From a virus (Duplodnaviria; Heunggongvirae; Uroviricota; Caudoviricetes), in IMG/VR virus record IMGVR_UViG_3300037418_003103: a stretch of 64,000 bases of DNA; one strand, written 5' to 3'. A program made the position numbers and the translations under genes. Shown here piece after piece: positions 5,830-63,588 of this stretch (position 1 is its first letter; every line of letters starts with the position of its first letter). The notes beneath the pieces are model-generated. The model was not told the DNA's origin, made no database searches, and worked only from the letters and a program-made list of their open reading frames with translations.

Positions 5830-7947
5830 TTATACTATTTTAACAAATGGCTTAGAGAACTCAGGCCTGATCATTTTCCAAATTTGTTTATCAAGAGCAT
5901 CAGAATAAGAATTAAGCCTGGTAAATAAAAGACTAGTATTCTTGTTTAACTTTGCTGCCTCAGCAAAAGCCTTTCTATTAACAATCTTATAGAAATCCTC
6001 TTCTACCTCAAGCCGAATTATTTCATACTGATGAATGAGTTCATTTGAAGTGTCATGCAACCAGTTAAAAAATTCGTCAGGTACTCTATCCAATAATTCA
6101 TCAAATGGCTTACCCTCTGATAGGTATTCCCAAACGGCTAGATTGGACACCCCTGTAACAATTCGATGCAGTCTGATATACTCATCGAATTTAACCTTAA
6201 CTCTAAATCCATTACTGAACTTAACAACAAACCCTTCTTTATTCTCCTCTTCAAGAGCCTTCAATTCACTTAAGTCATTTACTCCATCATACCTCTTAAC
6301 AATAGGTAAACCTATATCTTCTAATGGAAGATCCAGACCAGTAGCTGTATCTCTAACAGCGATAAGAATCAGATCATCCATTTCACCATATCCACACACG
6401 ATTCTATTTTCAGGATATATGATCTCCACAAGATATGTTTTAGACTTATCCATCTTATATTTTATATCCTTATACTTAGTATGAAGTATTCTATTTGCAT
6501 GCCTGGATTGATCCGAGTTAAAGCTACCCTTAGTTGCTATGTAAATCTCATCATTCAGCCAGTAAAAAATACCAAGCGAATTGTGTACTAATATTCCTTT
6601 TGCAAAATAATTTTTTGTTTCTGTTCCAATATCAAATCCTTTTCTTCCAGACGGAAAATTCCTTTTTGTGCTCTCAATCTTATTAATTGATAAAATTTTC
6701 TTTTCAACTAATTTAAATGATGCTTTACATTCTTTAATTAAATTTTTAAAACCATACGGTTTATCTCTATAAAGGAGTGGTAATTTATACCTCATACATG
6801 GAATTATATATGGCTCAATCGCTTCCCAAAAATTTGTAATTGAATTATCTTTAGACTTGTTTATTCTTATAACCCAACCCTTATGATAGTGAACATTAAA
6901 ATCGATTTGATACATTTCATATAATTTATTACCCAAACGATAACATTCATCTTCCGTAAATGAATTTGTTGCAAATAACGCACGGTCTTCTTGTTTTTCA
7001 CTATGTATAAGAGAACCATCATCCATATACCATTTTGCAACGGTAAAGTCATTAACCCAAGATAAATCTTCAGGTATTATTTTCTTACCTTCTGGATACC
7101 ATAAATCTCTCAATTCTGTTAATTCTGGGTATTCTTTTGTTACGAACCAATGTAATTGGCTACCATAACCAGATACTGATGTTTTTCTTTTAGCTGTATA
7201 ATCTACAAATATTGATTTAAAATAATTTACATATTCCTTATAGTTTTCAGTGTGTGGTTCACTATACTTATGGCCATTAATTCCTTTAACAATACATCCA
7301 TCCCCTAATAAACCTGACTTTATAATATGTAATAAAGGTTCAGGCATTGAATTAGCAAATGTCGATATGCTATCCCCAACTTCACACTCAAATGCAGGTT
7401 TATATTTACCATTAACAAATATATGATGATTATCAGTTACTCTAATAATATTAGGCTTATTAGCACCACCAGATTTTTTTGAAACAGGACAATCTACAGT
7501 AATAGCTAGCCAATTGTTTTTTGTTCCGTTGTCAAAATGTTCTATTACTTTAGACGGTACTAAATTACCCTCTTCATCCATACCTATTAACGTGGGCGTC
7601 AATTTCTTATTGACAATATCGCCTATTAATAATGTTGTACCATCCCAACATTGAATTGGTGTGTCGAACCTAAAGCAACCGTCCATCTTCTCATATACTT
7701 CAAAAGGTAGGTTAGGTATATCCTCAGGTTTGTGTTCAGATATATTAAAGAATTTACTGAAAGGACGAGCAATGATATTCATATCTCCATCCATTATAAG
7801 GCCACGAGTTATGGTTGTAACTTCATCCCATAACTTCATGAACTGAACTTTTTGAGAATAATTATAAATATATAACTCAGCAGATGGATGTTTTTGAACA
7901 TTCACCAGTCTATCTTCAATGTGTCTTAATAGTAATTCTTTATTCAT
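5830..7947 (-). CDS. T4 Rnl1-like RNA ligase interrupted by an intein
   Basis: RGLI, RPFSKFFN, motif I YEKMDG|SLG, ATKGSF, EIIYPENRIV, EGFVV, RVKVK. Confidence 0.92.
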   Translation of the reverse strand: MNKELLLRHIEDRLVNVQKHPSAELYIYNYSQKVQFMKLWDEVTTITRGLIMDGDMNIIARPFSKFFNISEHKPEDIPNLPFEVYEKMDGCFRFDTPIQCWDGTTLLIGDIVNKKLTPTLIGMDEEGNLVPSKVIEHFDNGTKNNWLAITVDCPVSKKSGGANKPNIIRVTDNHHIFVNGKYKPAFECEVGDSISTFANSMPEPLLHIIKSGLLGDGCIVKGINGHKYSEPHTENYKEYVNYFKSIFVDYTAKRKTSVSGYGSQLHWFVTKEYPELTELRDLWYPEGKKIIPEDLSWVNDFTVAKWYMDDGSLIHSEKQEDRALFATNSFTEDECYRLGNKLYEMYQIDFNVHYHKGWVIRINKSKDNSITNFWEAIEPYIIPCMRYKLPLLYRDKPYGFKNLIKECKASFKLVEKKILSINKIESTKRNFPSGRKGFDIGTETKNYFAKGILVHNSLGIFYWLNDEIYIATKGSFNSDQSRHANRILHTKYKDIKYKMDKSKTYLVEIIYPENRIVCGYGEMDDLILIAVRDTATGLDLPLEDIGLPIVKRYDGVNDLSELKALEEENKEGFVVKFSNGFRVKVKFDEYIRLHRIVTGVSNLAVWEYLSEGKPFDELLDRVPDEFFNWLHDTSNELIHQYEIIRLEVEEDFYKIVNRKAFAEAAKLNKNTSLLFTRLNSYSDALDKQIWKMIRPEFSKPFVKIV
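6580..7677 (-). mobile_element. Intein with LAGLIDADG homing endonuclease (366 aa)
   Basis: Starts at Cys91 (CFRFDT), block B VTDNHHIF, motifs GLLGDG and WYMDDG, ends ILVHN followed by Ser. Confidence 0.93.
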
Positions 7948-10327: not shown

Positions 10328-11872
10328 TTATTTTGCTAATCTTTCTCTTATTTCTTGCAGTGAATGATCAACAAGCAGTATTCCGTCTTTAAATACTGTT
10401 TTAAGTGCACCCGTTTTTTCTTCTTCGTTAGAAACCTGATCTTTTAGCTCATAAGTTTTATTATTATTTTCTATCACTTCTTTAACACACAATAGCCCTT
10501 TTGCACTCTTCTTTGTTCCGTCATCTGTTATTGGATCTTTAAATATTTCACGACCAATTGGATTAGATAATCCATGAGAACCTACAGTCCTAACTTCGCC
10601 ATAAGTTGCTTTTATTGCAAAACCAAAAGTGTCTCTGGTATTATATTGATAAGTATAACTTCCAATTCCAAGTACAACATTGGTTGAAGCGAAGCCTTTA
10701 GCTTTTAAACGTTCACAAATTTGTTCAGCTCGGTCAAGGGTGATGCTATCTCCATAAATGGCTCCAATATGCGGGTCCAAAACCTTGTATCCCAGTTCAT
10801 TTACAGTCCCGCCAAATACGTCCCAGAGTAATTCAATCACACCCTTATCTTCAGGTATCATTTTCTTTCTCCAATCAGACATTTGAGTGGAATCGTACAA
10901 ACCAGAGTGTTTTGTCCAATTAACCGCTCCACAGATAATATCAACAGGATCTCCACTGTCAGGACGTATAACCAACTTACCATTACGGCCCATAATTTTA
11001 TCCTTCATTTTGGGTAGAAAGTCTGTACATACAGTCCAAAGGTTCCAAGTATCCGATACTACTGAAAGGATTCCTTCTGGATACAAGTCTAATAACCTTT
11101 CAAACGTTTTTATTTCAGATTCTTGAGTGCCCATACACATTATTGAATGTTCTGTTGCTGGCACTGAGCATCCTACCAACTCTTTAGTTACATCAGCTCC
11201 GTAATATTCTTCAAGAAATTCTATTGCGGGAATGGTATCAGTGCCTTTAAAAGACAACAAATGGCCTGCTCCAGATAAAGCTCCACTTTCATGTGATGAC
11301 ATCCCTCTGAGAGCAAAATCGTGCCCGATAAATTCTACGCCATTGATTGAACCAGTGGTTTCCAACGCATATTTATTAAGCAACATTCTGTAATGGTTAG
11401 CTATAGTAGCTGATGTAGTTGACTGCCACACTGAATAGCTTAAAGATGTTTCAAGAAAATTAACTAACCAATATGCGTGATCAACCGTATTAGTAATAGT
11501 TACCACTGGAACTCTGATTGGTGAAACAGAACCCTCTGGTAAGGCTTTAATTTCCAGTGGTAAATAACCAAGATCATGAAGTTTTTCAATATGTGTAGTA
11601 TCTATAGAATCCTTGCCCAAAGTATTATCCATCATTCGTTTGAACTTTGAAATCACCTCATCTTTAGGCTTATTAAAAAACTGTTCATTCCAGTTTTTAA
11701 TCAAATATTCTTTAATATAATACTGTAAGCCAAAGTTAACAACGTAATTAATACCTGGTATTCTGGATTTTCTAGGCGTTAAGTTACTGTATATTTTAGT
11801 TGTATTTTCTGGGTACATTTTGTAGTGCGACTGTTTATAAAAATCTACTGCTAATAACGGATTTGTATTCAT
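10328..11872 (-). CDS. nadV: NAMPT-family protein (probable NARP1 Namat)
   Basis: DFYKQSH, HDFALRG, GTDT, PATEHS, VVSDT, RPDSGDP, YGDSIT, KKSAKG. Confidence 0.93.
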   Translation of the reverse strand: MNTNPLLAVDFYKQSHYKMYPENTTKIYSNLTPRKSRIPGINYVVNFGLQYYIKEYLIKNWNEQFFNKPKDEVISKFKRMMDNTLGKDSIDTTHIEKLHDLGYLPLEIKALPEGSVSPIRVPVVTITNTVDHAYWLVNFLETSLSYSVWQSTTSATIANHYRMLLNKYALETTGSINGVEFIGHDFALRGMSSHESGALSGAGHLLSFKGTDTIPAIEFLEEYYGADVTKELVGCSVPATEHSIMCMGTQESEIKTFERLLDLYPEGILSVVSDTWNLWTVCTDFLPKMKDKIMGRNGKLVIRPDSGDPVDIICGAVNWTKHSGLYDSTQMSDWRKKMIPEDKGVIELLWDVFGGTVNELGYKVLDPHIGAIYGDSITLDRAEQICERLKAKGFASTNVVLGIGSYTYQYNTRDTFGFAIKATYGEVRTVGSHGLSNPIGREIFKDPITDDGTKKSAKGLLCVKEVIENNNKTYELKDQVSNEEEKTGALKTVFKDGILLVDHSLQEIRERLAK

Positions 11873-13411: not shown

Positions 13412-14479
13412 TTAAAATTTTCTCATCTTTAATAAGATGTCCCTAATCAGGTCATCCGAAACACTTTCTGGGAGGCCAGAATTTTCATATAATTCTGGTA
13501 GTTCAATAATATCTTTTTCAGCGTTAGCTATAATTGTATTTAGATCAACCTTACCCAGTCTAATGTTGATCAGATACTCACTGTTCGGTCTTCTTACATT
13601 TAATGTTTTTTCAGTTGCTATTTCTTTAGCAATATCAAGTAGTCTTCGGCAATGAAGCATATTCTTACCATCTATCTTTTGTCCATGTTCCTCTGTATCA
13701 ACATAACGTTGAGTATTCCTCTTTGAGAGCCAATCCTGGTAATTATTATAATCACGACAGTGCTTAGAGTATTCATCCTTATTAAAGGATACGACGCCTA
13801 TACACGTAGCATTCTTGGGTACTCCAGTGAGTCGTATAGAATTACTTGTATCAAGTGATATTCCTCTAAATTTACTTGGGTTACCCTTAATAAATGAGTC
13901 AAAGTCATAATACAACGAATATATATCTTTCATGTGATCTACTTTAGTCAAACCACAGTATTCTTGTTTAAATTGGTGATTATCCAAATAATTCTGAAAT
14001 TTTATTGATACGCCTGAATTAAATAAATAAACAAAATCCAACGGTGTTTTTCTTTCCACTCTTTCCTTCTCCCAATTCATCTTCTTATCAAGACCCTTTG
14101 CCCTCTTTATCTGACCAACAGCATAATCACCAAACGACTTCAGACACTGTTTGGTTAAAAAGTCGCTTTTTCTTTCAATTAGAATATCAAATGATGGATG
14201 CTTATACAGGATTAGATCCTCTGGAGAATAAAGCATTGCAAGGGCATTTCCGTCATTTTTTTGAAGAAGTTCCAGGAATCTCTTTATTTCGTAGTAAGTT
14301 TCGTTGGCATTGATGTCAATTTGTTCTTTATAGCCAAAAGTAAGAATATCTTCATTACTCTGCATATAGACGCCTTTATAATCTATATCGCTTACTCCTT
14401 CTATGTAAGTACCATGGCTATATGAACCCACGATGCACTTAAATATAAGATTATGAAATATTATTTCTTTATCTGTCAT
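13412..14479 (-). CDS. Pol-beta superfamily nucleotidyltransferase (YcgL-like)
   Basis: VGSYSHG...SDIDYKG, YYEIKRF, DGKNMLHCRRLL. Confidence 0.85.
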   Translation of the reverse strand: MTDKEIIFHNLIFKCIVGSYSHGTYIEGVSDIDYKGVYMQSNEDILTFGYKEQIDINANETYYEIKRFLELLQKNDGNALAMLYSPEDLILYKHPSFDILIERKSDFLTKQCLKSFGDYAVGQIKRAKGLDKKMNWEKERVERKTPLDFVYLFNSGVSIKFQNYLDNHQFKQEYCGLTKVDHMKDIYSLYYDFDSFIKGNPSKFRGISLDTSNSIRLTGVPKNATCIGVVSFNKDEYSKHCRDYNNYQDWLSKRNTQRYVDTEEHGQKIDGKNMLHCRRLLDIAKEIATEKTLNVRRPNSEYLINIRLGKVDLNTIIANAEKDIIELPELYENSGLPESVSDDLIRDILLKMRKF

Positions 14480-43470: not shown

Positions 43471-43553
43471 AATTTAAGACAAATTTACTATAAATCTCTA
43501 GATAGTCAAGTTGATTAAAATATTATTTCTTATCTCAAAAACAATATCGAAAG

Positions 43554-44288
43554 TGGTGTGAGGTGGTCTCGAACCACCGACGACTGGATTTATTTCCTTG
43601 CCTGTTTAGAACAAAAAGTGTCAGTTTGACTATGACAATTAGGGCATAGTATTCTTAAATTACTTACTCTATTATCTGCCCTATCACCATTTATATGGTC
43701 TAATTGTAATACTAACGGTTTACCGTTCCAATTCGGTTCCTGTTGGCATTCATAACACTTATTTTCTAAAAATCCTTCCTCTAGGGCTCTTTTCTTAACT
43801 GTTTTAGTATTATTAGTTTTTGACGGAAAACTAAAAATATCATCTAATGTTAACCTCTTTTGGAAACCATTCTTGGTGCTACTAATACCAAAATCAAATT
43901 TAAGTTCACTCAAATTGATCTCGTATAAGCTAGCATATTTTTCAAGAGTCTGAAAATTACCTGATCTTATTTTAAGACCTAATTTCCTAAGTACCTCACT
44001 CTTTGAGTGACTGTTTTTAACAGCAATAACCAATAGTTGCTTCGTCCAATTAACAGTTTTTTTATACCCAATAGTTTTCAGCTCAAACTTCTTCAAGTAA
44101 TAGCGAACTGTTGAGGGCGATACGCCGAATTCTTTAGCTATTTCTCTTATTGATAGCTTTAGAGATACTAACTTAATTAATTTTTCTTTGTCCACCTATA
44201 TAAATAGGCGGACACGCCATAATTATAACAAATTCCTATAAAGTATTAGAAAATAAATCCTTTACTATACCAACTGAGTTATCTATTC
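43554..44288 (-). pseudogene. tRNA-Phe-like remnant split at the anticodon loop by an HNH gene
   Basis: 5' half about 44249-44288 (ACTCAGTTGGTATAGTAAAGGA); 3' half 43554-43597 with intact T-arm GGTGG-TTCGAGA-CCACC; acceptor pairs only 3/7. Confidence 0.55.
43590..44195 (-). CDS. HNH homing endonuclease with N-terminal HTH
   Basis: SIREIAKEFGVS; CYEC, LQLDHING..DN...NLRILCPNCHSQT. Confidence 0.9.
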   Translation of the reverse strand: MDKEKLIKLVSLKLSIREIAKEFGVSPSTVRYYLKKFELKTIGYKKTVNWTKQLLVIAVKNSHSKSEVLRKLGLKIRSGNFQTLEKYASLYEINLSELKFDFGISSTKNGFQKRLTLDDIFSFPSKTNNTKTVKKRALEEGFLENKCYECQQEPNWNGKPLVLQLDHINGDRADNRVSNLRILCPNCHSQTDTFCSKQARK

Positions 44289-44525
44289 TTTTTGGTTATC
44301 ATCTTCTTTATACTTAGTGTTTAAATAATGTAGATAGCCAATTTCTTCAGAAGTTAATTCACCAATAAAAAAACTATCTTTAAATTTTTCAGTATTAAAT
44401 ACGTGATATCTCACATTTTTATTCGAAAAGTATTCAACTTCAACAAGTTTGCCTAATTCAATTAATTCGTCTATAAAATATTCATACTGTTCTAAAGCTG
44501 TCATCATAATTTTAATTTTTATTTG

Positions 44526-44596
44526 AATTACATGAGAGATTCGAACTCCCGTGGTGTGGGTTGCAACCACACGCCTAACCACTCGGCCAATGTAAT
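44526..44596 (-). tRNA. tRNA-Cys(GCA)
   Basis: Cloverleaf; loop TTGCAAC; U73. Confidence 0.9.
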
Positions 44597-44597
44597 A

Positions 44598-44807
44598 TTA
44601 AGCTTCTTTTATCATTCCAAGGATTTCTCTTGGAGATACAAGAGTACACTTCTCTTGTATCTCCTTTATTCTTCTCTTGGGAATATCGTAGTGATTCTTG
44701 TGAAACCAGCATTTTTTAATCCCAAGCAACTCACCCATTAAATGCAGGTTCTCTATTGAATACGGTATGCATATCAGATGTCTCTGTTTATCACAGAAGT
44801 ACTTCAT
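44598..44807 (-). CDS. DUF4031-like protein
   Basis: NLH.M...LGIKKCWFH..HYDIP. Confidence 0.65.
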   Translation of the reverse strand: MKYFCDKQRHLICIPYSIENLHLMGELLGIKKCWFHKNHYDIPKRRIKEIQEKCTLVSPREILGMIKEA

Positions 44808-45013
44808 TTCCATTGCTTCTTTCTGTTGTACTTCCATGTTCTATACTCCCCGTATTTCCATTTTAGAATCTCTTTATTTTTTCTTCTACCTCTTGAACGA
44901 TGGTATATAATACCTTCATCCCAGTAGGGTTCAGACATCCTATCATTGGTTACAATCTTGTATTCTTTCCTACAAGTTGTCTTTTGGCTCACTGAGCCTT
45001 TAAATGGTTTCAT
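44804..45013 (-). CDS. Small basic protein ending WKYNRKKQWK
   Basis: Shares its C-terminal motif with 45433-45621. Confidence 0.65.
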   Translation of the reverse strand: MKPFKGSVSQKTTCRKEYKIVTNDRMSEPYWDEGIIYHRSRGRRKNKEILKWKYGEYRTWKYNRKKQWK

Positions 45014-45054
45014 CAATTAGATTTTTATATCTAATGTTCTGTTACTCTTTTCAT
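45011..45054 (-). promoter_or_regulatory. uORF MKRVTEH* plus hairpin next to the start codon
   Basis: Stop TAG lies in hairpin ATTAGAT/ATCTAAT; ATG 17 nt after the stop. Confidence 0.55.
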
Positions 45055-45100
45055 ATTATTTTTTTTTAACCAACAGTATTTAGTTGGCCAATTTTTAATT

Positions 45101-45451
45101 TTATACTATTCCAAATATTAGTAATTTTGCGGGCATTGCAGCAAAATAATCTGCATCATCCATTTTTGATACTGGCACTTCAAATCTTACTATTTCTGCA
45201 TTTATTTCTCCACAATTGATTAAAGTTTGATAATAGGCTACCCCTTTTCTTATCATTGTCAAAGTAGCTTGTGGGTTTTGCTTATAAAGAATTTTCTTTA
45301 TTTCATTTTTTTTGTCAATCTCTTTTTGAATCTTCCAATCATCGAAACCTGGAGGTGGTGGTACAAATCCGCGCATGTTATTTTTAATTTGTTTTTTACT
45401 TTTTTCAGACTGTTCCTCTGTTAAATTAGGAACTAATTCATTTGCTTCCAT
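45101..45451 (-). CDS. Hypothetical protein
   Basis: KKILYKQNP.A, FEVPVSKM.DA. Confidence 0.6.
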   Translation of the reverse strand: MEANELVPNLTEEQSEKSKKQIKNNMRGFVPPPPGFDDWKIQKEIDKKNEIKKILYKQNPQATLTMIRKGVAYYQTLINCGEINAEIVRFEVPVSKMDDADYFAAMPAKLLIFGIV

Positions 45452-45621
45452 TGTGTTTTTCTATTTAATTTCCAATTGATTTTGTGCCTATTATATCTGC
45501 GATATCTATTACAGCCTCTATGAGGTCTACATCTATCACAACCTAATCTATTTCTCAACCAAATTATTCTAAAGGTTCTTGAATCTGTTACTTTTTCTAT
45601 TTCTTTTGTTTTGTATGACAT
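45433..45621 (-). CDS. Small basic Cys/His protein ending WKLNRKTQWKQMN
   Basis: CDRCRPHRGCN; Arg/Lys-rich. Confidence 0.65.
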   Translation of the reverse strand: MSYKTKEIEKVTDSRTFRIIWLRNRLGCDRCRPHRGCNRYRRYNRHKINWKLNRKTQWKQMN

Positions 45622-45665
45622 TCTGAATTGTTTTTAATTCAGAAGAAGTCGTATTGTTTTTTCAT
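45619..45665 (-). promoter_or_regulatory. uORF MKKQYDFF* plus start-occluding hairpin
   Basis: Stop TGA lies in hairpin TTCTGAATT/AATTCAGAA; ATG 17 nt after the stop. Confidence 0.6.
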
Positions 45666-45684
45666 TTAATTTATATTTTACTTG

Positions 45685-45755
45685 TAGCACCACTAAGATT
45701 CGAACTTAGTCGTCGAAAATCAAAATTTCGCATGCTGCCGTTACATCATGGTGCA
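45685..45755 (-). tRNA. tRNA-Gln(TTG)
   Basis: CGAAA-TTTTGAT-TTTCG anticodon arm; GTTCGAATC T-arm. Confidence 0.88.
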
Positions 45756-46120
45756 ATTTTACTCCAAATTCTATTTTCCAGGTCCTTATAAAAGGGTTCA
45801 GGGATCTTTATTCCTCTTGACTCAAAATCCTCTACAATTTCCTGCTTCCTAAAAGTACCTTCAACTACACCATCACTCCAAAGGTTGACATGCAACCCCC
45901 AACTCTTCTTAGCTGTTATTACAGCCCTGGTTATGTTCGGATGGCGGGTAATAACCTCAAATATATCATTACTCTTAAATTCTCCATTATCAAATCTCTT
46001 AAAGGCTTCCTTTCCTGAGAATGAACCAGTTCCTTGTTTGAATCTGTAGTCCAGATTCAGATCACATCCACAAAAGATAAGTAACCCACTTCTATATGAC
46101 TTCAGAAAGAATGAGAACAT
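45746..46120 (-). CDS. Hypothetical protein (possibly frameshifted 5' end)
   Basis: Frame stays open about 40 codons upstream without a start codon. Confidence 0.5.
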   Translation of the reverse strand: MFSFFLKSYRSGLLIFCGCDLNLDYRFKQGTGSFSGKEAFKRFDNGEFKSNDIFEVITRHPNITRAVITAKKSWGLHVNLWSDGVVEGTFRKQEIVEDFESRGIKIPEPFYKDLENRIWSKIAP

Positions 46121-46253
46121 TTCATTAAAGTTTTCTGAATACTTTCTTATCTTTCTATCTTTTCTTGAACCAATCAGTTTTTTTCTTTCTTCTCTATCCT
46201 GATTGGTTACATTGCGTCCAGCCGTTTCATAATGCTCATAATTTTAATTTGTC

Positions 46254-46514
46254 TTAGGGTATTATTCCAAGTGATTTTAATTCTTTTTCAATACCTCTTC
46301 CCTCCTTATTGGAGGCGGTACAAAAGCACTGTACCGCCTCAGCTACTGCGACCTCTACATCATCGTCATAAGCCGCAATTGTATTCAGTTTGAACAATGG
46401 TATGTCAACGTCCAAGTAACCCATTCTTTGAGTTGTAATTACTGGCGTTAGGACACTATAGCTCCTTCCAGGAAGATCCATTGTTATATTCATTACTTTA
46501 TTATCATTCTCCAT
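46254..46514 (-). CDS. Hypothetical protein
   Basis: 86-aa ORF inside the tRNA array. Confidence 0.5.
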   Translation of the reverse strand: MENDNKVMNITMDLPGRSYSVLTPVITTQRMGYLDVDIPLFKLNTIAAYDDDVEVAVAEAVQCFCTASNKEGRGIEKELKSLGIIP

Positions 46515-46602
46515 ATTAATAATGTTTCATAATAAATATTAGCAAACGGTGGCAGAGGATAGGCGTGCACTAACGCCTCGTTTTACGTCAAACTTTGCCT
46601 TG

Positions 46603-46676
46603 CTCAGGCTTGTGGATTCGAACCACAGTCTCCACCGCATATATAGGTGGCATCCTAACCGCTAGACCAAACCTGA
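46603..46676 (-). tRNA. tRNA of undetermined identity (Asp/Glu-type body, 9-nt anticodon loop)
   Basis: All stems intact; CCACC-TATATATGC-GGTGG. Confidence 0.7.
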
Positions 46677-46781
46677 ATTTAAGATCTGACTAAAGCTTAG
46701 ACGCACACGTGGCTATGGTGGCTCTCCTTCGGCTGATTCAGCAAATTTTTGCTGACACCGTTTATTAATATTTAAAGAACT

Positions 46782-46858
46782 TGGCGGTTTGGACGGGACT
46801 CGAACCCGTGACCTCCGCCGTGACAGGGCGGCATTCTAACCAACTGAACTACCAAACC
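46782..46858 (-). tRNA. tRNA-Asp(GTC) with encoded CCA
   Basis: Canonical cloverleaf; loop CTGTCAC. Confidence 0.97.
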
Positions 46859-46903
46859 TTTTAATCGTTTTTAAAACACGCAGAACGATTCAAAACTGAC
46901 CTG

Positions 46904-46976
46904 AGTTCCCTGCTGGACTTGAACCAGCGACCAATCCCTATTACAGGACTGCTCTAACCAACTGAGCTAAGGGAGC
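46904..46976 (-). tRNA. tRNA of undetermined identity (irregular anticodon loop)
   Basis: Good D- and T-arms; AGTCC-TGTAATAG-GGATT. Confidence 0.65.
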
Positions 46977-46982
46977 GTTTTG

Positions 46983-47055
46983 TAGCACGAACGGGAATCG
47001 AACCCGTGACTTCTCCGTGAAAGGGAGACGTCTTAAACCCCTTGACCATCGCGCC
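46983..47055 (-). tRNA. tRNA-Glu(TTC)
   Basis: TCTCC-CTTTCAC-GGAGA. Confidence 0.95.
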
Positions 47056-47067
47056 ATTAATATTTAG

Positions 47068-47141
47068 TAGTCCATGAAGGACTCGAACCCTCAACCTCCT
47101 GATCCGTTATCAGGTGCTCTATCCAGTTGAGCTAATGAACC
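47068..47141 (-). tRNA. tRNA-Arg(ACG), A at position 33
   Basis: CCTGA-TAACGGA-TCAGG. Confidence 0.88.
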
Positions 47142-47152
47142 GTTTTTTTTTG

Positions 47153-47224
47153 AGCAGAATATTGGATTCGAACCACACATCCTGATTACAAATCAGGCGC
47201 TCTACCAGCTAAGCTATATTCTGC
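47153..47224 (-). tRNA. tRNA-Thr(TGT)
   Basis: CCTGA-TTTGTAA-TCAGG; short variable/T region. Confidence 0.85.
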
Positions 47225-47231
47225 ATTTGTC

Positions 47232-48039
47232 GGAGACGTGGGGCTCGAAACATACTTTTCTTTAATTATTTGGTATTTATTAATATGAAGCCAAAATACA
47301 CTAATAAAGAATTTGAAGAAGCAACTTCAACCACAGAATTACCTTGCGAATGTTACCAATGTTCAAATACATTTCTTAAAATTAAAAAACATATAACTTT
47401 TGAACTTAAACACAATGTCGGTGAGTGTAAATTTTGCTCACAACAGTGTTTATCTAATTTTAAAAATAAGAAAATTAGTGTTAATTGTTCAAATTGTTCA
47501 AAGACCTTTAAAAAAAACAAACATAGAATGAAATTATCATTAAATCATTTCTGTTCACGCTCATGCTCCGCAACCTATAATAACATTCATAAAACTTACG
47601 GCACTAGAAGGTCAAAATTGGAATGTTGGTTAGAGCAACAACTCACCGCATTATACCCTACCATCCATTTTGATTTCAACAAGAAAACTATTATCAAGTC
47701 TGAGCTAGATATTTACATACCATCATTATCATTAGCATTTGAATTAAACGGTATCTTTCATTACGAACCCATATTCGGCATTAAAAAACTTAACCAAACA
47801 CAGAACAACGATATTTCCAAAAGTAAAGCTTGCTTTGACGCAAAAGTTGACCTTTGTATTATAGATGTTTCATCTCAAAATTATTTCAAAGAACCTTCCA
47901 GTATCAAATTTTTAGATATCATCCGAAAAATTATTGATGACCGCTTGTTAACATCTTAGCCGCTATAAAAATAACGTTACCAGCAAACACCTCTTGGCGG
48001 TGGGTTAACTTAGTTTGCCTAGGAGACGTGGGGCTCGAA
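47232..48039. mobile_element. Endonuclease cassette flanked by an 18-bp direct repeat of a tRNA 3' end
   Basis: ggagacgtggggctcgaa at 47232-47249 and 48022-48039. Confidence 0.75.
47285..47959 (+). CDS. Zinc-finger plus PD-(D/E)XK (Vsr/DUF559-like) homing-type endonuclease
   Basis: CxxC/FCSxxC repeats; ELDIYIP..AFELNG.FH; antisense to the array. Confidence 0.8.
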   Translation: MKPKYTNKEFEEATSTTELPCECYQCSNTFLKIKKHITFELKHNVGECKFCSQQCLSNFKNKKISVNCSNCSKTFKKNKHRMKLSLNHFCSRSCSATYNNIHKTYGTRRSKLECWLEQQLTALYPTIHFDFNKKTIIKSELDIYIPSLSLAFELNGIFHYEPIFGIKKLNQTQNNDISKSKACFDAKVDLCIIDVSSQNYFKEPSSIKFLDIIRKIIDDRLLTS

Positions 48040-48094
48040 CCCACCTGACCTGATACCCTTCCGACACGGTATAAGCGTGAGGGGATAGACTCCA
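48020..48094 (-). tRNA. Atypical D-armless tRNA-Ile(TAT)-like RNA
   Basis: CACG-CTTATAC-CGTG arm, GTGGG-TTCGAGC-CCCAC T-arm, no D-stem. Confidence 0.6.
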
Positions 48095-48105
48095 ATTTTT
48101 AATAG

Positions 48106-48178
48106 AGCGAAGTGTCAGATTCGAACTGCATCCCCTGGTTGGAAGCCAAGTACTTTAAGCCATTAAGCTACACCTCGC
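48106..48178 (-). tRNA. tRNA-Gly(TCC)
   Basis: Loop CTTCCAA; GCG/CGC acceptor with U73. Confidence 0.9.
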
Positions 48179-48184
48179 AATTTG

Positions 48185-48258
48185 TGGTCCCTGCTGGATT
48201 CGAACCAGCGGCCCTTGGTTTGTAATACCAATGCTCTAACCAACTGAGCTAAAGGACT
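48185..48258 (-). tRNA. tRNA-Val(TAC)
   Basis: TTGGT-ATTACAA-ACCAA. Confidence 0.9.
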
Positions 48259-48259
48259 A

Positions 48260-48298
48260 TGGAGCCGAGAGGCAGCATCCCTGCCTGTTCAACTCGGC
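48260..48298 (-). ncRNA. 39-nt CCA-terminated tRNA minihelix-like RNA
   Basis: GCCGAG-TTGAAC-AGGCAG-GGATG-CTGCCT-CTCGGC-T-CCA. Confidence 0.55.
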
Positions 48299-48534
48299 AT
48301 ATACTCTTTATAATTTTATTCAAAATAATCTGTCGCAATAACCAACTCATCTAATTTCTTTTTACTAACCTTCTTTGCTATTATCTTAAGATCATACTCT
48401 TCCCACCTAATTTGTGCTTTACGAATTGCTTCCTCTTCTGATTCGGCAAGAGTATAACAATACATTGGTGTTTTTGCTCCTTTCATTATAGGTATAAATA
48501 CAAAATATAATTCATTCATTTGTTAATTTTTTTG

Positions 48535-48608
48535 TGGAGTAGGCGAGCATCAAACTCGCTACCTCCTGCATGCAAAGCAGGTGCTCTATCCAACTGAGCT
48601 TCTACCCC
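48535..48608 (-). tRNA. tRNA-Ala(TGC)
   Basis: G3:U70 pair; loop TTTGCAT. Confidence 0.92.
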
Positions 48609-48626
48609 ATTTAATTCTTTTCTTTG

Positions 48627-48699
48627 TAGCCTTGAATGGATTCGAACCATTATCCTCGGCTTAGAAGGTCGATGCTCTGGTCCATTGAGCTACAAAGCT
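48627..48699 (-). tRNA. tRNA-Arg(TCT)
   Basis: Loop CTTCTAA. Confidence 0.92.
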
Positions 48700-49026
48700 A
48701 TTGTTGCACGAAAATAGTGTATTTAGCTAAATATACTTTATTTAAAGTATATTTTATAATTTTTAATTGGGTTGTCGGTTAATTTGTTAGTACTTTCCAA
48801 ATACCATCCAATATCATACGTTTCGCTATCTATATTACTAATTTCTATTTTCATACCATCCTTTTTCAATTTTTCAATAGTTTCTGCTGAAACAAAACAC
48901 TCAAATAATGTTACATAGTTTAACTTATTTTCTGGGTTATAGGTGGTATTATGTATTAATGTTATAATATCTTCATACGTTTTTTCATGAAACTTTCCCA
49001 ATTCTGTCATAATTTTTAATTTTTTA

Positions 49027-49101
49027 GCGCGCAGTCAAGGAATCGAACCTTGTCCATGCTAGGTTTTGGAGACCTGCCGCATACCATTATGCTACCACGC
49101 A
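49027..49101 (-). tRNA. tRNA-Trp(CCA)
   Basis: Loop CTCCAAA; T-arm CAAGG-TTCGATT-CCTTG. Confidence 0.85.
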
Positions 49102-49295
49102 TTTTATTTTTCGTATTCAAACAACTTAACAAAAATCAGAACCCTCCCTCTTTCTCTTTCAAATCTAAGCTCCGCTTTATCATCAACATCTTTCGCCTTC
49201 TTTAAGTACTTATCGTATATCTGATCAAAGTCCTTATTAAAATCCTTTTCTTTCTCACTCCCTAACTTCCTGTAACGCTCTGTGTTTTCCATATT

Positions 49296-49325
49296 AATAA
49301 AAAACCCCCGATTTTGTCGGGGGCT
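49296..49325 (-). terminator. Intrinsic terminator/attenuator at the head of the tRNA array
   Basis: AGCCCCCGA-CAAAA-TCGGGGGTT-TTTTATT. Confidence 0.85.
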
Positions 49326-49346
49326 ATCTAAGTTACTTTTATATTT

Positions 49347-49445
49347 TTAAAAATATTCAGTATCATACATAACACACCCCAATTCAATGTCTTCGCATTG
49401 TGCCCAATTAAATCGTATCCCTGTTTCTATGACTACTTGTCTCAT
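49347..49445 (-). CDS. Leader peptide MRQVVIETGIRFNWAQCEDIELGCVMYDTEYF (32 aa)
   Basis: Lies between promoter boxes (49475-49495) and the terminator; codons mirror the anticodons of the array. Confidence 0.7.
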   Translation of the reverse strand: MRQVVIETGIRFNWAQCEDIELGCVMYDTEYF

Positions 49446-49474
49446 TATTATTATGTTTTAACTTTCTTTGTCAT

Positions 49475-49495
49475 TATAAATATAATGCAAATATA
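49475..49495 (-). promoter_or_regulatory. Tandem host-type (TATATTTG) and late-type (TATTTATA) promoter boxes for the tRNA array
   Basis: Both motifs lie 30-50 nt upstream of the leader ATG. Confidence 0.65.
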
Positions 49496-49533
49496 CTAAA
49501 AGTAATTATTACAACCAACTTTTTTATTTTTTT

Positions 49534-61080: not shown

Positions 61081-63588
61081 TTATTCTTTAGAAATAACCG
61101 AGCCTGAACCTTTTTTAGTTTTAACAACCCCATCTACAGCTCCGCCGCTACACTTTCCATTCTGTGCCTCTTTATTGTTATTCAATTTTGTGCAATTATC
61201 TATTTCAACAAAGCTTCCTTTAGGATACTGAGTCTTAACCTGGGCTTGTGTTTTTCTAATCTTTTTAAACTTGCCTTCTCTTCCAATTCCTGGAAGTGCA
61301 TTTGCATCGTATGGTCCGCTTGAGCCACCATTAGCGGCTGAACCAGCAACAGGACCTTCTTTAAGTATGCTGCCTAATTCATCTTCGGGATAGAGGCTTT
61401 TTTTAATTACGCTAGTACTAGACATTGGTGCAGTAAACGGTCCACTTGAACCACCTGTTGACGCACCACCTGCAACAGTAGTTTCGTTCACACCTCCAAA
61501 ATACTCGGATAAAATTCGAACAATTTCCTTTGACTTATCATAAAGATTGATCAGCTCATTCTTTAAAGCCTCATCAATTTTTACAATTGGATCTCCTTCA
61601 TTAAATGATTTTATACCCTCTCCAACAGGAAGAAATTCGATCCTATCATTAATGTAATTCTGCAATACAAAACCGTCTATTTTAAAATCAGAATAAATGT
61701 CATCACTATGCTCATATCTATTTGCATAATCCTCAAAATCAGCATGAGATAAATCAGCATAATCAAACACGTATAACTGATTTGATTTATCCTTGACTAA
61801 AGCTATATCACCATTAAACACTATAACTTTAAAAACTATATTTTTTGGTATCTTAGCAGCTATTTCTGGATACTCTTGTGCATTCCATGGTGATGACTGA
61901 TCATTTTCTGTCCCAGGCGGATAATTGCTTTCATATTCTTCTATTTCTTGCTTTGGATGGCTCATTAAAACTTGTCCGTTCGGATCTTTAAATCTATTGC
62001 CACTCTTAGGTTCCTGCATGAATTTAACGACGCTATCTTCAACCGCCTTAACGGCCTCTTCTGGTTTTTTAAAAAATTTGCCTTTTAACTTGGTGGCCAA
62101 TTTATAAGCTCCTGCAGGAAGTGCAATGAGTAATCCCATGCCTGTCAAAAATTGTGATAAATCGCCCCATGTAATACCATTTCTTCTCCAGAAACTATCC
62201 AGTCCAGCCTGTGAAGGATTGTTATATATATCATGTATCAATTTCAAAACTGCCTGATGTAATTCAGGGCTAAATATATCCTCATTCAATTTAGACTTTA
62301 CTGATTCTTTAATAGGCATGATAAGCCTATTGTACTGTTCTACAGTGATTCTATATTTTTTATTAAGCTTCATTTCCTTCAGTAATTTTGCTTGATGTTC
62401 ATTTATTTTTATCTTTCTCATAGCGCCTTTTTTATTTTTTGCATTATTTCCTTTAGACTCTCTTACCTTAGTCAAAGCATAATCCTTATCTACATTATCG
62501 CTCCCGCCTAGTTTAGCAATATTCCGCATTTTATTGCCACTAATTATTATATTTTCGTGAATTGATTCTTGGCTGTTATTTTTAGATGAACTAATTTGTT
62601 TTATTTGACTTGAATCGAACACAATGAATTCTTTTTCATTGTTGCCCATATCTGAAATGATACCATCATATCCTTCGTTGCTAAGTATTTTATGTGCTTC
62701 ATCTGAATTAAGGCCGTCTCTTAAGTCATATAGCTCCCCAAGGCCAATCTCATCATTAATAAATTCTAAAGCGTCTTCATCCTTCATCGTTTGGCCAAAT
62801 AATATCTGAACTATAACGCCAGCTTGCTCTTTCTTAGTAAAAATAGATCTAAGTCTTAGATCAATAGGTTTTCTCATTAAGATATATGCCGCAATAACAC
62901 GACCGCCAAATTGATCAGTATTTTCTTTTTTATCTGAAAAGAAAATACCATGGATAGTATTATCATATCCTGTATTACTACCTTTTTTATTTAAATCAAA
63001 ATCATTGAATTCAGCATTTGTTGCGTGATAAACTATAATCGGATTTCCTTTACTATCTACTATTTTATTTCCGTCTGCTGCAGTGAATCCTTTAACGACG
63101 CTTTTTGTCTGCTCACCATGCATGGATTCTGATTTAATCGATTGGCTATTCTTACTCACTAACTTAACTTGTGATGGTTCAAAAATAACAGTCTGAAATG
63201 CAGGATATTTAGCCATTACTGAGTCAAAACCTTGTTCTTTCAAAAATTTAATGTCCTCAGCATTAATATGCTCTACTTCGATTTTTTTACCAGTATATGG
63301 ATTGGTTACATCGCTTACATATGTTCTATTGTCTATTATAAATGGCTTTCTAATATCAAGATATGCTTGGTACTTATTCTTACCATATTGCATCTGTGGA
63401 GGCGCTTCATGAAAATATATACCGCGATTAGTTAGTGAATGCTTTCTTGTGTATCCTTCACTATCTTGTCCTTTCATCTCTGAAAAATCTCCATCGGATG
63501 AATGATAAAAAATCTTTGGCCTTCCATCAAGTTTCAACATAGGTCTAAACCCATTATGTTCTATCTCTTTAAGCTGCTTTTGTACCAT
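61081..63588 (-). CDS. Large protein with two ART-PolyVal-like domains
   Basis: YHS..GIYF..YG..AYL.IRKP..GFDSV..VIFEPSQVK, then YHAT..GIFF..FG..AYI.MRKP..GYDGII..EFIVFDSSQIK. Confidence 0.7.
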   Translation of the reverse strand: MVQKQLKEIEHNGFRPMLKLDGRPKIFYHSSDGDFSEMKGQDSEGYTRKHSLTNRGIYFHEAPPQMQYGKNKYQAYLDIRKPFIIDNRTYVSDVTNPYTGKKIEVEHINAEDIKFLKEQGFDSVMAKYPAFQTVIFEPSQVKLVSKNSQSIKSESMHGEQTKSVVKGFTAADGNKIVDSKGNPIIVYHATNAEFNDFDLNKKGSNTGYDNTIHGIFFSDKKENTDQFGGRVIAAYILMRKPIDLRLRSIFTKKEQAGVIVQILFGQTMKDEDALEFINDEIGLGELYDLRDGLNSDEAHKILSNEGYDGIISDMGNNEKEFIVFDSSQIKQISSSKNNSQESIHENIIISGNKMRNIAKLGGSDNVDKDYALTKVRESKGNNAKNKKGAMRKIKINEHQAKLLKEMKLNKKYRITVEQYNRLIMPIKESVKSKLNEDIFSPELHQAVLKLIHDIYNNPSQAGLDSFWRRNGITWGDLSQFLTGMGLLIALPAGAYKLATKLKGKFFKKPEEAVKAVEDSVVKFMQEPKSGNRFKDPNGQVLMSHPKQEIEEYESNYPPGTENDQSSPWNAQEYPEIAAKIPKNIVFKVIVFNGDIALVKDKSNQLYVFDYADLSHADFEDYANRYEHSDDIYSDFKIDGFVLQNYINDRIEFLPVGEGIKSFNEGDPIVKIDEALKNELINLYDKSKEIVRILSEYFGGVNETTVAGGASTGGSSGPFTAPMSSTSVIKKSLYPEDELGSILKEGPVAGSAANGGSSGPYDANALPGIGREGKFKKIRKTQAQVKTQYPKGSFVEIDNCTKLNNNKEAQNGKCSGGAVDGVVKTKKGSGSVISKE

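Follow-up and report, generated by a model that had tools for sequence, protein, structure and literature searches.

Two genes for small, strongly basic proteins in the tRNA array of a large phage are each preceded by a short upstream open reading frame (uORF) whose stop codon is embedded in the 5′ arm of a hairpin, the 3′ arm of which reaches the start region of the gene behind it. In all likelihood the arrangement is a genuine switch operated by translation, of a general type already known, placed before an undescribed protein family. The cassette, consisting of an open uORF, a stop codon within a hairpin, a masked start codon, and a gene for a basic protein of 60 to 90 aa, occurs in more than 100 sampled uncultured phage and metagenome contigs.

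Two cassettes in one phage tRNA array

The window, by which we mean the whole 64,000-nt stretch of DNA that was analyzed, carries the two cassettes between genes for tRNA-Gln and tRNA-Cys (Table 1). The sequencing runs listed as containing this stretch are of rhizosphere and soil DNA only, with none from RNA among them. All hairpins described here are predicted folds.

Table 1. Features of the two cassettes and their immediate surroundings in the window
Feature	Coordinates	Strand	Basis or detail
tRNA-Gln(UUG)	45684..45755	(-)	ARAGORN and Rfam tRNA
uORF2, MKKQYDFF*, 8 codons and TGA	45639..45665	(-)	start ATG 45665, TGA 45641-45639
Hairpin 2, perfect 9-bp stem, 6-nt loop	45621..45644	(-)	fold
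pep2, basic 62-aa protein	45433..45621	(-)	ATG 45621
116-aa ORF, without known family	45101..45451	(-)	
uORF1, MKRVTEH*, 7 codons and TAG	45031..45054	(-)	start ATG 45054, TAG 45033-45031
Hairpin 1, perfect 7-bp stem, 6-nt loop	45016..45035	(-)	fold
pep1, basic 69-aa protein	44804..45013	(-)	ATG 45013
DUF4031-family ORF	44598..44837	(-)	Pfam PF13223, E 5.6e-8
tRNA-Cys(GCA), end of cassette pair	44525..44596	(-)	ARAGORN and Rfam tRNA

The initial annotation had placed the uORFs MKRVTEH* and MKKQYDFF* ahead of the two genes, each ending within the 5′ arm of a hairpin, and had described the 3′ arms as reaching the start region. Both observations are confirmed on the minus strand, with the 3′ arms ending 2 nt before the pep1 ATG and on the pep2 ATG itself. 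Hairpin 1 reads ATTAGAT, loop ATAAAA, and ATCTAAT, followed by TG and the pep1 ATG at 45013, and its 5′ arm holds the TAG of uORF1. Hairpin 2 reads TTCTGAATT, loop AAAAAC, and AATTCAGAA, the final A being the A of the pep2 ATG at 45621; its 5′ arm contains the last sense codon of uORF2 together with the TGA. Folded as isolated segments, hairpin 2 has a free energy of -11.0 kcal/mol (z -4.4, with 0 of 200 shuffles as good) and hairpin 1 has one of -4.1 kcal/mol (z -2.7). At this energy hairpin 1 is weak and could leak. The hairpin loops are A-rich and could act as standby sites for direct initiation.

The uORF2 ATG lies 18 nt downstream of the tRNA-Gln(UUG) 3′ end, behind an A-rich leader without a Shine-Dalgarno (SD) sequence. 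The peptide conforms to the consensus of the family, M-K-K-x-[F/Y]-D-x-[Y/L/H/F]-stop, and uORF2 alone in the window satisfies the strict motif ATG-AAR-AAR-N6-GAY-N6-stop. We regard uORF1 as a divergent variant of the family leader, comparable to MKKITQH* in one of the related loci (L032).

Conservation of the leader architecture

Related loci were gathered by protein similarity, and a leader was scored as retaining the layout when the uORF stop formed part of the paired 5′ arm and the opposite (3′) arm ended -5 to +6 nt from the main ATG. The expectation, raised in the initial annotation, that homologs should carry the uORF and the hairpin was borne out: 106 of 115 distinct leaders keep the layout, with compensatory changes in the stems. 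The counted leaders are mutually related, so their number overstates the independent events. Most of the nine failing leaders stand directly behind a pep2-type gene, several such genes bearing the leader themselves, and the remainder resemble miscalled starts or motif hits. Family hairpins have a median of 12 bp, -10.7 kcal/mol, and z -4.5. A tRNA 3′ end lies 12 to 15 nt upstream of the uORF ATG in about 20 leaders from related loci.

The distance of exactly 17 nt from stop to ATG, which had been singled out as shared by the two cassettes, is indeed equal in both window copies, but only 6 of 106 family leaders have it. Gaps in the family range between 11 and 41 nt and peak at 16 and 28 nt; they measure 11 to 29 nt in most leaders and 11 to 17 nt in about one third. 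The equal spacing is particular to this phage and is not a design rule.

The stem covaries. RNAalifold identified 8 pairs in the leaders, 7 of them with double compensatory changes; stem cells were paired in 93.9% of cases versus 73.7% in shuffles, and the covariation score was 0.595 versus 0.229 (0 of 500 shuffles reached the observed value for either measure). When the pairing partners were slid, 31 to 53% were paired. The stems also include about 70 G-U pairs, all on the sense strand; this points to RNA and led us to reject a DNA palindrome. A transcription terminator or trpL-type attenuator was also rejected, since the 3′ arm runs straight into the main ATG and coding sequence and there is no U-tract. 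Alternative, competing pairing was found in none of the leaders. A search of Rfam 15 over positions 43500 to 49500 at E values up to 1 returned only tRNAs and one subthreshold ribozyme, with no match in 45011 to 45665.

To gauge the background, we applied a mechanical test that asks for a uORF of 5 to 12 codons together with a perfect stem of 6 bp or more, whose 5′ arm contains the uORF stop and whose 3′ arm finishes at the ATG. It was passed by 6 of 150 ORFs in the window (4%), both cassettes among them, and by 11 of 387 unrelated ORFs in the related loci (2.8%).

The uORF peptide

Counted from the stop, the uORF peptide has the consensus M-K-K-x-F-D-x-[Y/L/H]-stop, and the codons behind it vary synonymously. 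The uORF is exactly 8 codons long in 77 of 106 leaders, and codon 6 is Asp in 73 of these 77 (GAT in 40, GAC in 33); Lys at codon 3 is encoded by AAA in 42 and AAG in 27. Conservation stays anchored to the stop in uORFs of 7 to 11 codons. By this pattern of substitution, selection acts on the uORF as coding sequence. In 626 kb there are 111 occurrences (79 distinct) of the motif ATG-AAR-AAR-N6-GAY-N6-stop, against 0.4 in shuffles, always on the gene strand and always preceding a member of the pep1/pep2 superfamily.

Both the ATG and the N terminus of the main ORF are conserved in their own right. Programmed recoding (read-through, frameshift, or gene 60-type bypass) was rejected on the distribution of the gap modulo 3, which is 46/42/18; with the gap in all three frames, the uORF and main products are separate rather than fused. 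Conservation is stronger in the uORF peptide than in the protein behind it, for which plain coupling gives no reason.

A predicted open uORF start and closed main start

The two starts of each leader differ in predicted accessibility: the unpaired probability averages 0.73 near the uORF start and 0.30 near the main start, and the former is predicted to be the more open of the two in 102 of 103 leaders. An SD-like 4-mer was detected in 1 of 60 window genes, where positions -16 to -9 are A-rich, and there is no SD before the main ATG of pep1 or pep2. Upstream of the uORF, A occupies position -3 in 56 of 77 leaders, and positions -14 to -10 are A-rich. Initiation in Bacteroidetes is governed by structure and upstream adenines, and AUGs are depleted near starts (PMC6847099). 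The leader of L161, a distant relative from an SD-using phage, has an SD in the hairpin loop.

From the geometry and its conservation, we infer, as the initial annotation had proposed, that a ribosome at the uORF stop opens the hairpin. The main start codon would be locked in the hairpin, with no SD to assist, and the uORF initiation region would be open and A-rich, as in Bacteroidota and other hosts that initiate without SD sequences. To get to the stop codon within the 5′ arm, a ribosome translating the uORF would have to unwind that arm entirely, so the 3′ arm and the main ATG would be single-stranded at termination. The same ribosome, or its 30S subunit, could then reinitiate on the main ORF before the stem re-forms. 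Such a gate would tie the basic protein, and the ORF overlapping its end, to translation of the uORF. By textbook ribosome footprints, a ribosome positioned on the stop leaves no space for a second 30S subunit at an ATG 11 to 17 nt away, which in our reading favors reinitiation by the same ribosome. We consider it on balance probable that uORF translation is needed to unmask the main start and is followed by termination and reinitiation, so that uORF translation would activate the main ORF.

The residues preferred in the uORF (aromatic at -4, Asp at -3, and Tyr, Leu, or His at -1) and the preference for stops read by a single release factor (TAG or TGA) may adjust the pause at the stop codon or the success of reinitiation, and the gate would then respond to the state of translation. 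The conserved uORF peptide hints at an extra tuning of the gate. We speculate, tentatively and with more doubt than confidence, that the octapeptide M-K-K-x-F-D-x-[Y/L/H], still within the ribosome at UAG or UGA, sets dwell or reinitiation according to a cellular signal and that the cassette is a sensor of the host translational state. Candidate signals would be damage to Asp, Tyr, His, or Lys tRNAs by host anticodon nucleases, release factor activity, or the product protein. If this is true, the sensor would switch on a new class of tRNA array-associated ribosome- or tRNA-binding miniproteins in a lineage that initiates without SD sequences.

Alternative explanations

An alternative hypothesis is that the leader senses stalled ribosomes, as leaders of the erm, cat, and cmlA type do. 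A stall on the last uORF codons would keep the 5′ arm open so that fresh ribosomes initiate on the main ORF, and normal passage through the uORF would let the stem re-form; the small protein would then be induced under translational stress. The stall might be caused by the nascent peptide or by scarcity of charged tRNA-Asp, tRNA-Tyr, or tRNA-His, for example, after anticodon nuclease attack. The composition of the uORF is consistent with this idea: the conserved residues keep set distances from the stop and stem; Asp occupies -3 in 78 of 106 leaders against a background of 6%; Tyr or His occupies -1 in 69 of 106 (background, 5% for Tyr and 2% for His); NAY codons (Asp, Tyr, and Asn) make up 85% of position -3; and GAC is enriched (45% versus 16%; p 7.5e-9). 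The cat leader peptides start with MVKTD, MKKSE, or MKKAD, similar to the MKKTD... and MKKAD... starts seen here. The initial annotation had suggested a check for RNA repair gene neighborhoods; the cassettes sit in tRNA arrays of a phage that also has an Rnl1-like RNA ligase and the RNA repair gene RlaP. The architecture also agrees with translation attenuation as reviewed in PMC8876359. However, each leader has a single hairpin with no alternative pairing, the single-codon runs of classical hungry-codon leaders are absent, 27 of 106 leaders have Leu at position -1, and the GAC enrichment may be a lineage effect. In the third or so of leaders with a gap of 11 to 17 nt, moreover, a stalled ribosome would sterically exclude a second 30S subunit. 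We view stall sensing as unlikely.

The choice of stop codon suggests a different kind of sensor. The uORF ends in TAG in 66%, TGA in 25%, and TAA in 9% of cases (TAG or TGA in 91%), compared with TAA in 55%, TGA in 27%, and TAG in 18% of family main ORFs and TAA in 71%, TGA in 17%, and TAG in 13% of all ORFs of at least 80 aa. If the leader reported on stop codons or release factors, efficient termination at UAG or UGA would lead to reinitiation, and read-through by a phage suppressor tRNA or loss of RF1 or RF2 would carry the ribosome across the main ATG out of frame and turn the gene off, giving early/late control. In one related locus (L050), a CUA-anticodon tRNA lies 1.7 kb downstream, but this was the only suppressor tRNA within the flanks of 47 scanned loci, and since all three stops are used, no one release factor is picked out. 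The bias toward TAG and TGA is more simply explained by the G-C pair that these codons contribute to an AT-rich stem. We judge a release factor sensor to be improbable.

It is distinctly improbable, in our estimation, that the hairpin is mainly an operator or an element of RNA stability or processing and that the uORF merely carries ribosomes past it. In that case the basic protein might bind its own leader as feedback, or the stem might protect the mRNA end after excision of the upstream tRNA. The products are very basic (pI 10.2 for pep1 and 11.2 for pep2), the leader is exclusive to the pep1/pep2 superfamily, as expected under autoregulation, and the tRNA 3′ ends close upstream of about 20 leaders would suit a processing element. 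Stem sequences, however, vary freely with compensation and loops are alike only in A-richness, which is ill-suited to a sequence-specific operator, and neither the conserved uORF peptide nor the constant placement of the stop within the 5′ arm would be accounted for.

Timing control by an internal promoter, for which T4 gene e and I-TevI are precedents, is very improbable. Long transcripts would be closed and silent and those started in the uORF region would begin within the stem and be open, the uORF itself being irrelevant. The common TTT-GAY at codons 5 and 6 does yield TTTG, a core of Bacteroidota promoter elements, but many variants (Y-D, D-D, L-D, and TTC-GAC) lack it, and the invariant ATG, in-frame stop, 8-codon length, and synonymous third positions are coding signatures. 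Chance pairing of short ORFs with AT-rich inverted repeats, both common in DNA such as this window (32.6% G+C), in which hairpin 1 by itself is unimpressive, is refuted by the frequency of the layout in the family (92%, against the 2.8% and 4% backgrounds of related loci and window), by the shuffled alignments, and by the motif count.

The basic proteins and the ORFs that overlap them

The initial annotation had called pep1 and pep2 paralogs on the strength of a C-terminal WK(Y/L)NRK(K/T)QWK motif. BLASTP aligns this motif at 8 of 11 identities and finds no other match between the two, and on direct reading the third-position differences between the two copies are synonymous. At the family level the relationship is firmer: hhalign of the two profiles gives a probability of 95.5% (E 1.4e-8), over an alignment that spans the N-terminal part and the C-terminal tail. 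Of these homologous families, the one represented by pep2 has a Cys/His knuckle, in pep2 itself CxxCxPHxGC followed by the tail NWKLNRKTQWK, and the other is without it. The pep1 family, with the consensus ...YP.YWDEG..FYP.YRRGFKN....YQVRMYKTWKHNRKTQWK, comprises 1010 clusters at 90% identity, which are uncharacterized and from phage, and 158 representatives at 50% identity, all of 31 to 123 aa. The pep2 family has about 61 clusters, and a similarity search with pep2 found two close relatives. Members of both families are almost always located inside phage tRNA arrays.

The initial annotation proposed that pep1 and pep2 bind ribosomes or RNA, which they may do; the property seen in them is their basic character. 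Pfam and PHROGs gave no above-threshold match for either protein. The best PDB profile match, to the RNase III double-stranded RNA-binding domain, was not significant (E 0.7) and was set aside. AlphaFold2 modeled the window pep1 poorly (pLDDT 63, pTM 0.22) and a typical family member better (pLDDT 80.6); with the latter model, Foldseek returned no match and the best VIA Z score was 3.3. The ESM Atlas yielded no usable match for the protein family. Among 1.84 billion representatives searched, only small stand-alone proteins appeared, with no fusions that hint at function, and clustering of neighboring ORFs yielded homing endonucleases and antisense artifacts only, with no conserved partner gene. 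When three family members served as tblastn queries against 50,697 phage records, no relevant match and no cultured carrier turned up, and a distant DNA search with positions 44000 to 47000 matched only tRNAs and the DUF4031 gene.

Both genes are overlapped at their 3′ ends. The 116-aa ORF has its ATG within the CAA-TGG (Q-W) codons in the tail of pep2, overlapping that gene by 19 nt, and because of this placement the ORF is probably translationally coupled to pep2. The DUF4031-family ORF overlaps the pep1 3′ end, with candidate ATGs at 44837, 44813, and 44807 in or just past W-K codons of the pep1 tail.

Relation to known systems

Our literature search found no paper describing this system. 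The closest parallels belong to a class in which translation of one ORF is coupled to the next (mgtQ-mgtB, tap-repA, and rpmI-rplT); by sequence and predicted fold, the phage leaders share its open uORF start, sequestered main start, and overlap with the inhibitory arm. In Salmonella, mgtQ is an 8-codon ORF between mgtC and mgtB that opens a stem-loop masking the mgtB start region; acidic residues of its minipeptide matter, acting by ribosome destabilization before completion (PMC8092293). The likeness lies in an 8-codon ORF within an operon whose translation frees the next start from an inhibitory stem-loop. In contrast, mgtQ uses alternative stem-loops (1:2 and 2:3) and an SD, whereas the phage leader has a single hairpin and no SD, its stop is inside the 5′ arm, its 3′ arm abuts the ATG, and its conserved residues keep their distance from the stop. 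The two are also unrelated in host and gene family, and phage tRNA arrays are a different setting.

In the resistance genes cat, cmlA, and ermC, a leader ORF (about 9 codons in cat and cmlA) has a start of its own, and the downstream start region is masked by a stem-loop (PMC8876359). As proposed here, a ribosome on the leader disrupts the masking stem-loop. There, however, a drug stalls the ribosome in mid-leader and initiation occurs de novo on an SD, which the phage leaders lack, and the product makes the cell resistant to the inducer. The phage gene has no known inducer and encodes a small basic protein, and the uORF stop lies within the stem, 11 to 29 nt from the ATG in most leaders.

Upstream translation and nearby termination unfold a start-masking structure in R1 tap-repA, the IncB and IncI-alpha repB/repY leaders, and rpmI-rplT of the infC operon. 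As in the phage leader, the upstream ORF ends near the next start and unfolding is required. These systems differ in that they rely on long-range helices rather than a local hairpin. Their leader peptides are not known to be conserved in sequence, and control is exerted by antisense RNA or by a ribosomal protein that binds a pseudoknot. Two further precedents are more distant. The MAGDIS uORF of mammalian S-adenosylmethionine decarboxylase mRNA, which functions through its last residues, with Asp at -3, and through termination events, resembles the phage leader as a very short uORF with Asp at -3 from the stop, but it operates in eukaryotic scanning, is repressive and polyamine dependent, and is not known to have a start-masking hairpin. 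The T4 gene 60 bypass is likewise a phage element with a stop codon in a hairpin, the stop coming right after the last decoded codon, and it involves a nascent-peptide signal; it fuses ORFs via matched take-off and landing codons, whereas the main ORF here has its own ATG.

Implications for phage tRNA arrays

Large phages carry tRNA arrays with their own regulation and accessory genes, and the cassette recurs there as a stand-alone unit. It is a compact and sequence-diverse natural case of uORF-gated translation without SD sequences. With access to the start set by structure alone, termination-reinitiation and nascent-peptide effects would be directly testable in short synthetic constructs. 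The cassette also brings to notice two homologous, unnamed protein families, whose strict association with tRNA genes suggests that they may contribute to tRNA handling or to the function of ribosomes in the course of infection.

uORF-hairpin cassettes within a phage tRNA array

The window is AT-rich and phage-like (G+C, 32.6%), and its minus strand carries nearly all genes. Within a cluster of 13 tRNA genes (44525-49100) interspersed with HNH homing endonucleases lie two genes for small basic proteins, pep1 and pep2, each preceded by a leader made up of a short upstream ORF (uORF) and a hairpin. As the initial annotation proposed, the two units match: each uORF stop falls within the 5' arm of its hairpin, each 3' arm extends to the main ATG, and the stop-to-ATG gap is 17 nt in both. 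As isolated segments, hairpin 2 is predicted to fold at -11.0 kcal/mol (z -4.4) and hairpin 1 at -4.1 kcal/mol (z -2.7).

Coordinates of the two cassettes and adjoining genes
Feature	Position	Strand	Remarks
tRNA-Gln	45755-45684	-	18 nt, then uORF2
uORF2 (MKKQYDFF, stop)	45665-45639	-	
Hairpin 2	45644-45621	-	9 bp, loop AAAAAC
pep2	ATG 45621 to 45433	-	62 aa
116-aa ORF	ATG 45451	-	starts inside Q-W codons of pep2 tail
uORF1 (MKRVTEH, stop)	45054-45031	-	
Hairpin 1	45035-45016	-	7 bp, loop ATAAAA
pep1	ATG 45013 to 44804	-	69 aa
DUF4031 ORF		-	overlaps pep1 tail; Pfam E 5.6e-8
tRNA-Cys		-	after DUF4031 ORF

Two ARAGORN calls in the array are odd (46602-46676 and 46903-46976, minus strand): one is a tRNA-Tyr whose anticodon is AUA, and the other is a tRNA whose anticodon loop is irregular ("???"). 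An HDV-like ribozyme match in the array (RF02682, 47947-48019, minus strand; 38.9 bits, E 1e-4) falls short of the gathering score, 44. The phage also encodes an Rnl1-type RNA ligase split by a LAGLIDADG endonuclease domain, the RNA-repair nucleotidyltransferase RlaP, a NAMPT-like enzyme, and an ART-PolyVal ADP-ribosyltransferase (5830-7947, 13412-14479, 10328-11872, and 61081-63588, respectively, minus strand), yet its RNA-repair genes are 30-39 kb away from the cassettes.

Conservation of the leader among relatives

Related loci, chosen by protein similarity, were fetched from IMG/VR (64), metagenomes (80), and GTDB contigs (4). A uORF of 5 to 14 codons ending 8 to 45 nt before the main ATG was found in 109 of 115 distinct leaders. 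The full layout, with the stop predicted to pair in the 5' arm and the 3' arm ending within -5 to +6 nt of the ATG, is kept in 106 of the 115, a count of mutually related sequences rather than of independent events. The hairpins of qualifying leaders have a median of 12 bp and a predicted -10.7 kcal/mol (z -4.5). Most of the nine failing leaders lie directly downstream of a pep2-type gene, several such genes having a leader of their own, and the remainder resemble miscalled starts or motif hits. Of 48 family leaders, 29 passed a stricter mechanical test; among the remaining ORFs in these loci, only 11 of 387 did, 2 of the 11 being pep2 genes.

Ninety of the 106 leaders are in loci with same-strand tRNA genes, and about 20 have a tRNA whose 3' end is 12-15 nt upstream of the uORF ATG. 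Many normally class I tRNAs (Asn, Lys, His, Ile, Trp, and Cys) were called at 84-92 nt, with long variable arms or short inserts (loci L015, L018, L022, L024, L042, L057, L059, and others). A tblastn search with three family members found no carrier among 50,697 phage records. GTDB contigs L075 and L076 (PLXT01000115.1 and PLXT01000002.1) carry the cassette in a "Methanobacterium sp." MAG, and L077 (375 kb) does so in a Bacteroidota MAG; the contigs probably come from phages and were swept into the bins, which makes the bin names weak indicators of host.

At L055 (250-341) and L074 (100-185), an unrelated 76- to 77-aa gene (METQIRIWRV...) directly follows a tRNA. Its short uORF (MRTIDFPPW or MTNLNSS), whose peptide departs from the family consensus, ends at or in a hairpin abutting the ATG. 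The layout may be more widespread in these tRNA arrays.

Proteins encoded by the cassettes

A profile search recovered 1010 clusters of pep1 relatives at 90% identity. At 50% identity there were 158 representatives, all of 31-123 aa, among which we found no Pfam domain, name, or fusion partner. That pep1 and pep2 are paralogs was first suggested by their shared tail, and this is borne out: BLASTP aligned only 8 of 11 shared residues, and the family profiles aligned with 95.5% probability (E 1.4e-8) across an N-terminal region (T..REY.I) and the tail WK.NRK.QWK. In pep2 relatives (about 61 clusters), a CxxCxP[H/N][K/R]GCN knuckle replaces the YP.YWDEG...KN middle of pep1. A third, Cys-rich type of 93-95 aa has the leader too. 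An AF2 model of a typical family member (pLDDT 80.6) has two helices with a long conserved loop between them and matched no solved fold. No neighbor gene other than tRNAs is conserved. Both proteins are very basic (pI 10.2 for pep1 and 11.2 for pep2), and putative tRNA or ribosome binding is a reasonable guess.

The [T/Q]-W-K tail (ACA/CAA-TGG-AAR) of both proteins holds ATG-GAA in the +2 frame (window 44804-44837 and 45433-45451), where the next ORF (MEANELV..., MEVQQ..., or MEMKYF...) begins; at L053 and L063, a pep1 gene (MEIDFPP...) likewise starts within the final stretch of a pep2 gene. With such tail-embedded starts, the cassettes look, from their sequences, like chains of coupled ORFs. 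At L040, L044, and L050 (~2185-2282 in L040 and L050), pep1 genes without a stop of their own (tails ...VTQVGEG...) run on for 40-50 nt within the tRNA-Ser gene that follows; tRNA excision would leave a non-stop mRNA.

Proposed mechanism and alternatives

Shine-Dalgarno (SD) sequences precede 1 of 60 window genes, and upstream regions are A-rich, as in Bacteroidetes, where initiation is set by secondary structure and upstream adenines (A-3) and additional AUGs are avoided near starts (PMC6847099). Position -3 of the uORF start is A in 56 of 77 leaders, and positions -14 to -10 are A-rich. The mean predicted unpaired probability is 0.73 around uORF starts versus 0.30 around main starts; in 102 of 103 leaders, the uORF start is the more open of the two. 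L161, a distant relative of pep2 whose phage uses SD sequences, has the same design, with one SD before the uORF and a second inside the hairpin loop, indicating that the architecture is independent of initiation mode.

The invariants are an open uORF start, a stop in the 5' arm, and a 3' arm abutting an ATG without an SD. By the time the stop occupies its A site, a ribosome would necessarily have unwound the 5' arm, and gaps as short as 11-17 nt would leave no space for a second 30S beside it, which favors termination followed by reinitiation of the same ribosome at the main ATG. We lean toward such obligatory translational coupling as the working model. Leader-gene reinitiation in general has been proposed on the basis of genome statistics (PMC4833913). 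The gap is mostly 11-29 nt and occurs in all three frames (46/42/18), excluding a recoding fusion; a transcription attenuator is excluded by the lack of a U-tract and of alternative pairing.

The uORF has exactly 8 codons in 77 of 106 leaders, with the consensus M-K-K-x-F-D-x-[Y/L/H]. Asp occupies codon 6 in 73 of the 77 (GAT 40, GAC 33), and Lys at codon 3 is likewise split (AAA 42, AAG 27), a codon pattern that is best read as selection on amino acid or tRNA, not nucleotides. When uORFs of 7 to 11 codons are aligned at their stops, they have the last four positions in common: F/Y/D/L at -4, D (78/106) or Y (10) at -3, and Y (48), L (27), or H (21) at -1, against backgrounds of 6% D, 5% Y, and 2% H. 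We counted 111 instances (79 distinct) of the strict motif ATG-AAR-AAR-N6-GAY-N6-stop in 626 kb, versus 0.4 in shuffles; all are on the gene strand and precede a superfamily gene.

A stalled-ribosome sensor of the erm/cat kind, perhaps of Asp, Tyr, or His tRNA supply, is possible but unlikely.

The leaders are similar in architecture to the translation attenuation of cat, cmlA, and ermC (PMC8876359), and the closest published case that we found is mgtQ, an ORF of 8 codons that, when translated, releases the start region of mgtB from an inhibitory stem-loop (PMC8092293). Unlike these systems, the present design has a single hairpin with the stop in its stem and no SD, its peptide conservation is stop-anchored, and it is exclusive to one phage protein superfamily in tRNA arrays. 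Searches of full-text literature found no description of it.

uORF stops are TAG (66%), TGA (25%), or TAA (9%), whereas ordinary ORFs of the same loci use TAA in 71%; we consider a sensor of the stop codon or release factor quite improbable. A CUA-anticodon tRNA of amber suppressor type (ARAGORN "Pyl"; L050, 3917-3989) lies 1.7 kb downstream of a cassette with a TAG-terminated uORF.

Among 27 leaders, RNAalifold found 8 pairs, 7 with compensatory double changes. In a counting control, 93.9% of cells were paired versus 73.7% in shuffles, with a covariation score of 0.595 versus 0.229 (0/500), and pairing fell to 31-53% when partners were slid. The sense strand holds about 70 G-U pairs, which speaks for an RNA element and against a DNA palindrome. 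That the hairpin is an operator or RNA-stability element seems a shade less likely still, an internal promoter is highly doubtful, and chance is negligible.

Within the coupling that we favor, because peptide conservation is anchored at the stop and TAA is avoided, the leaders suggest that termination or reinitiation is tuned and possibly signal responsive.
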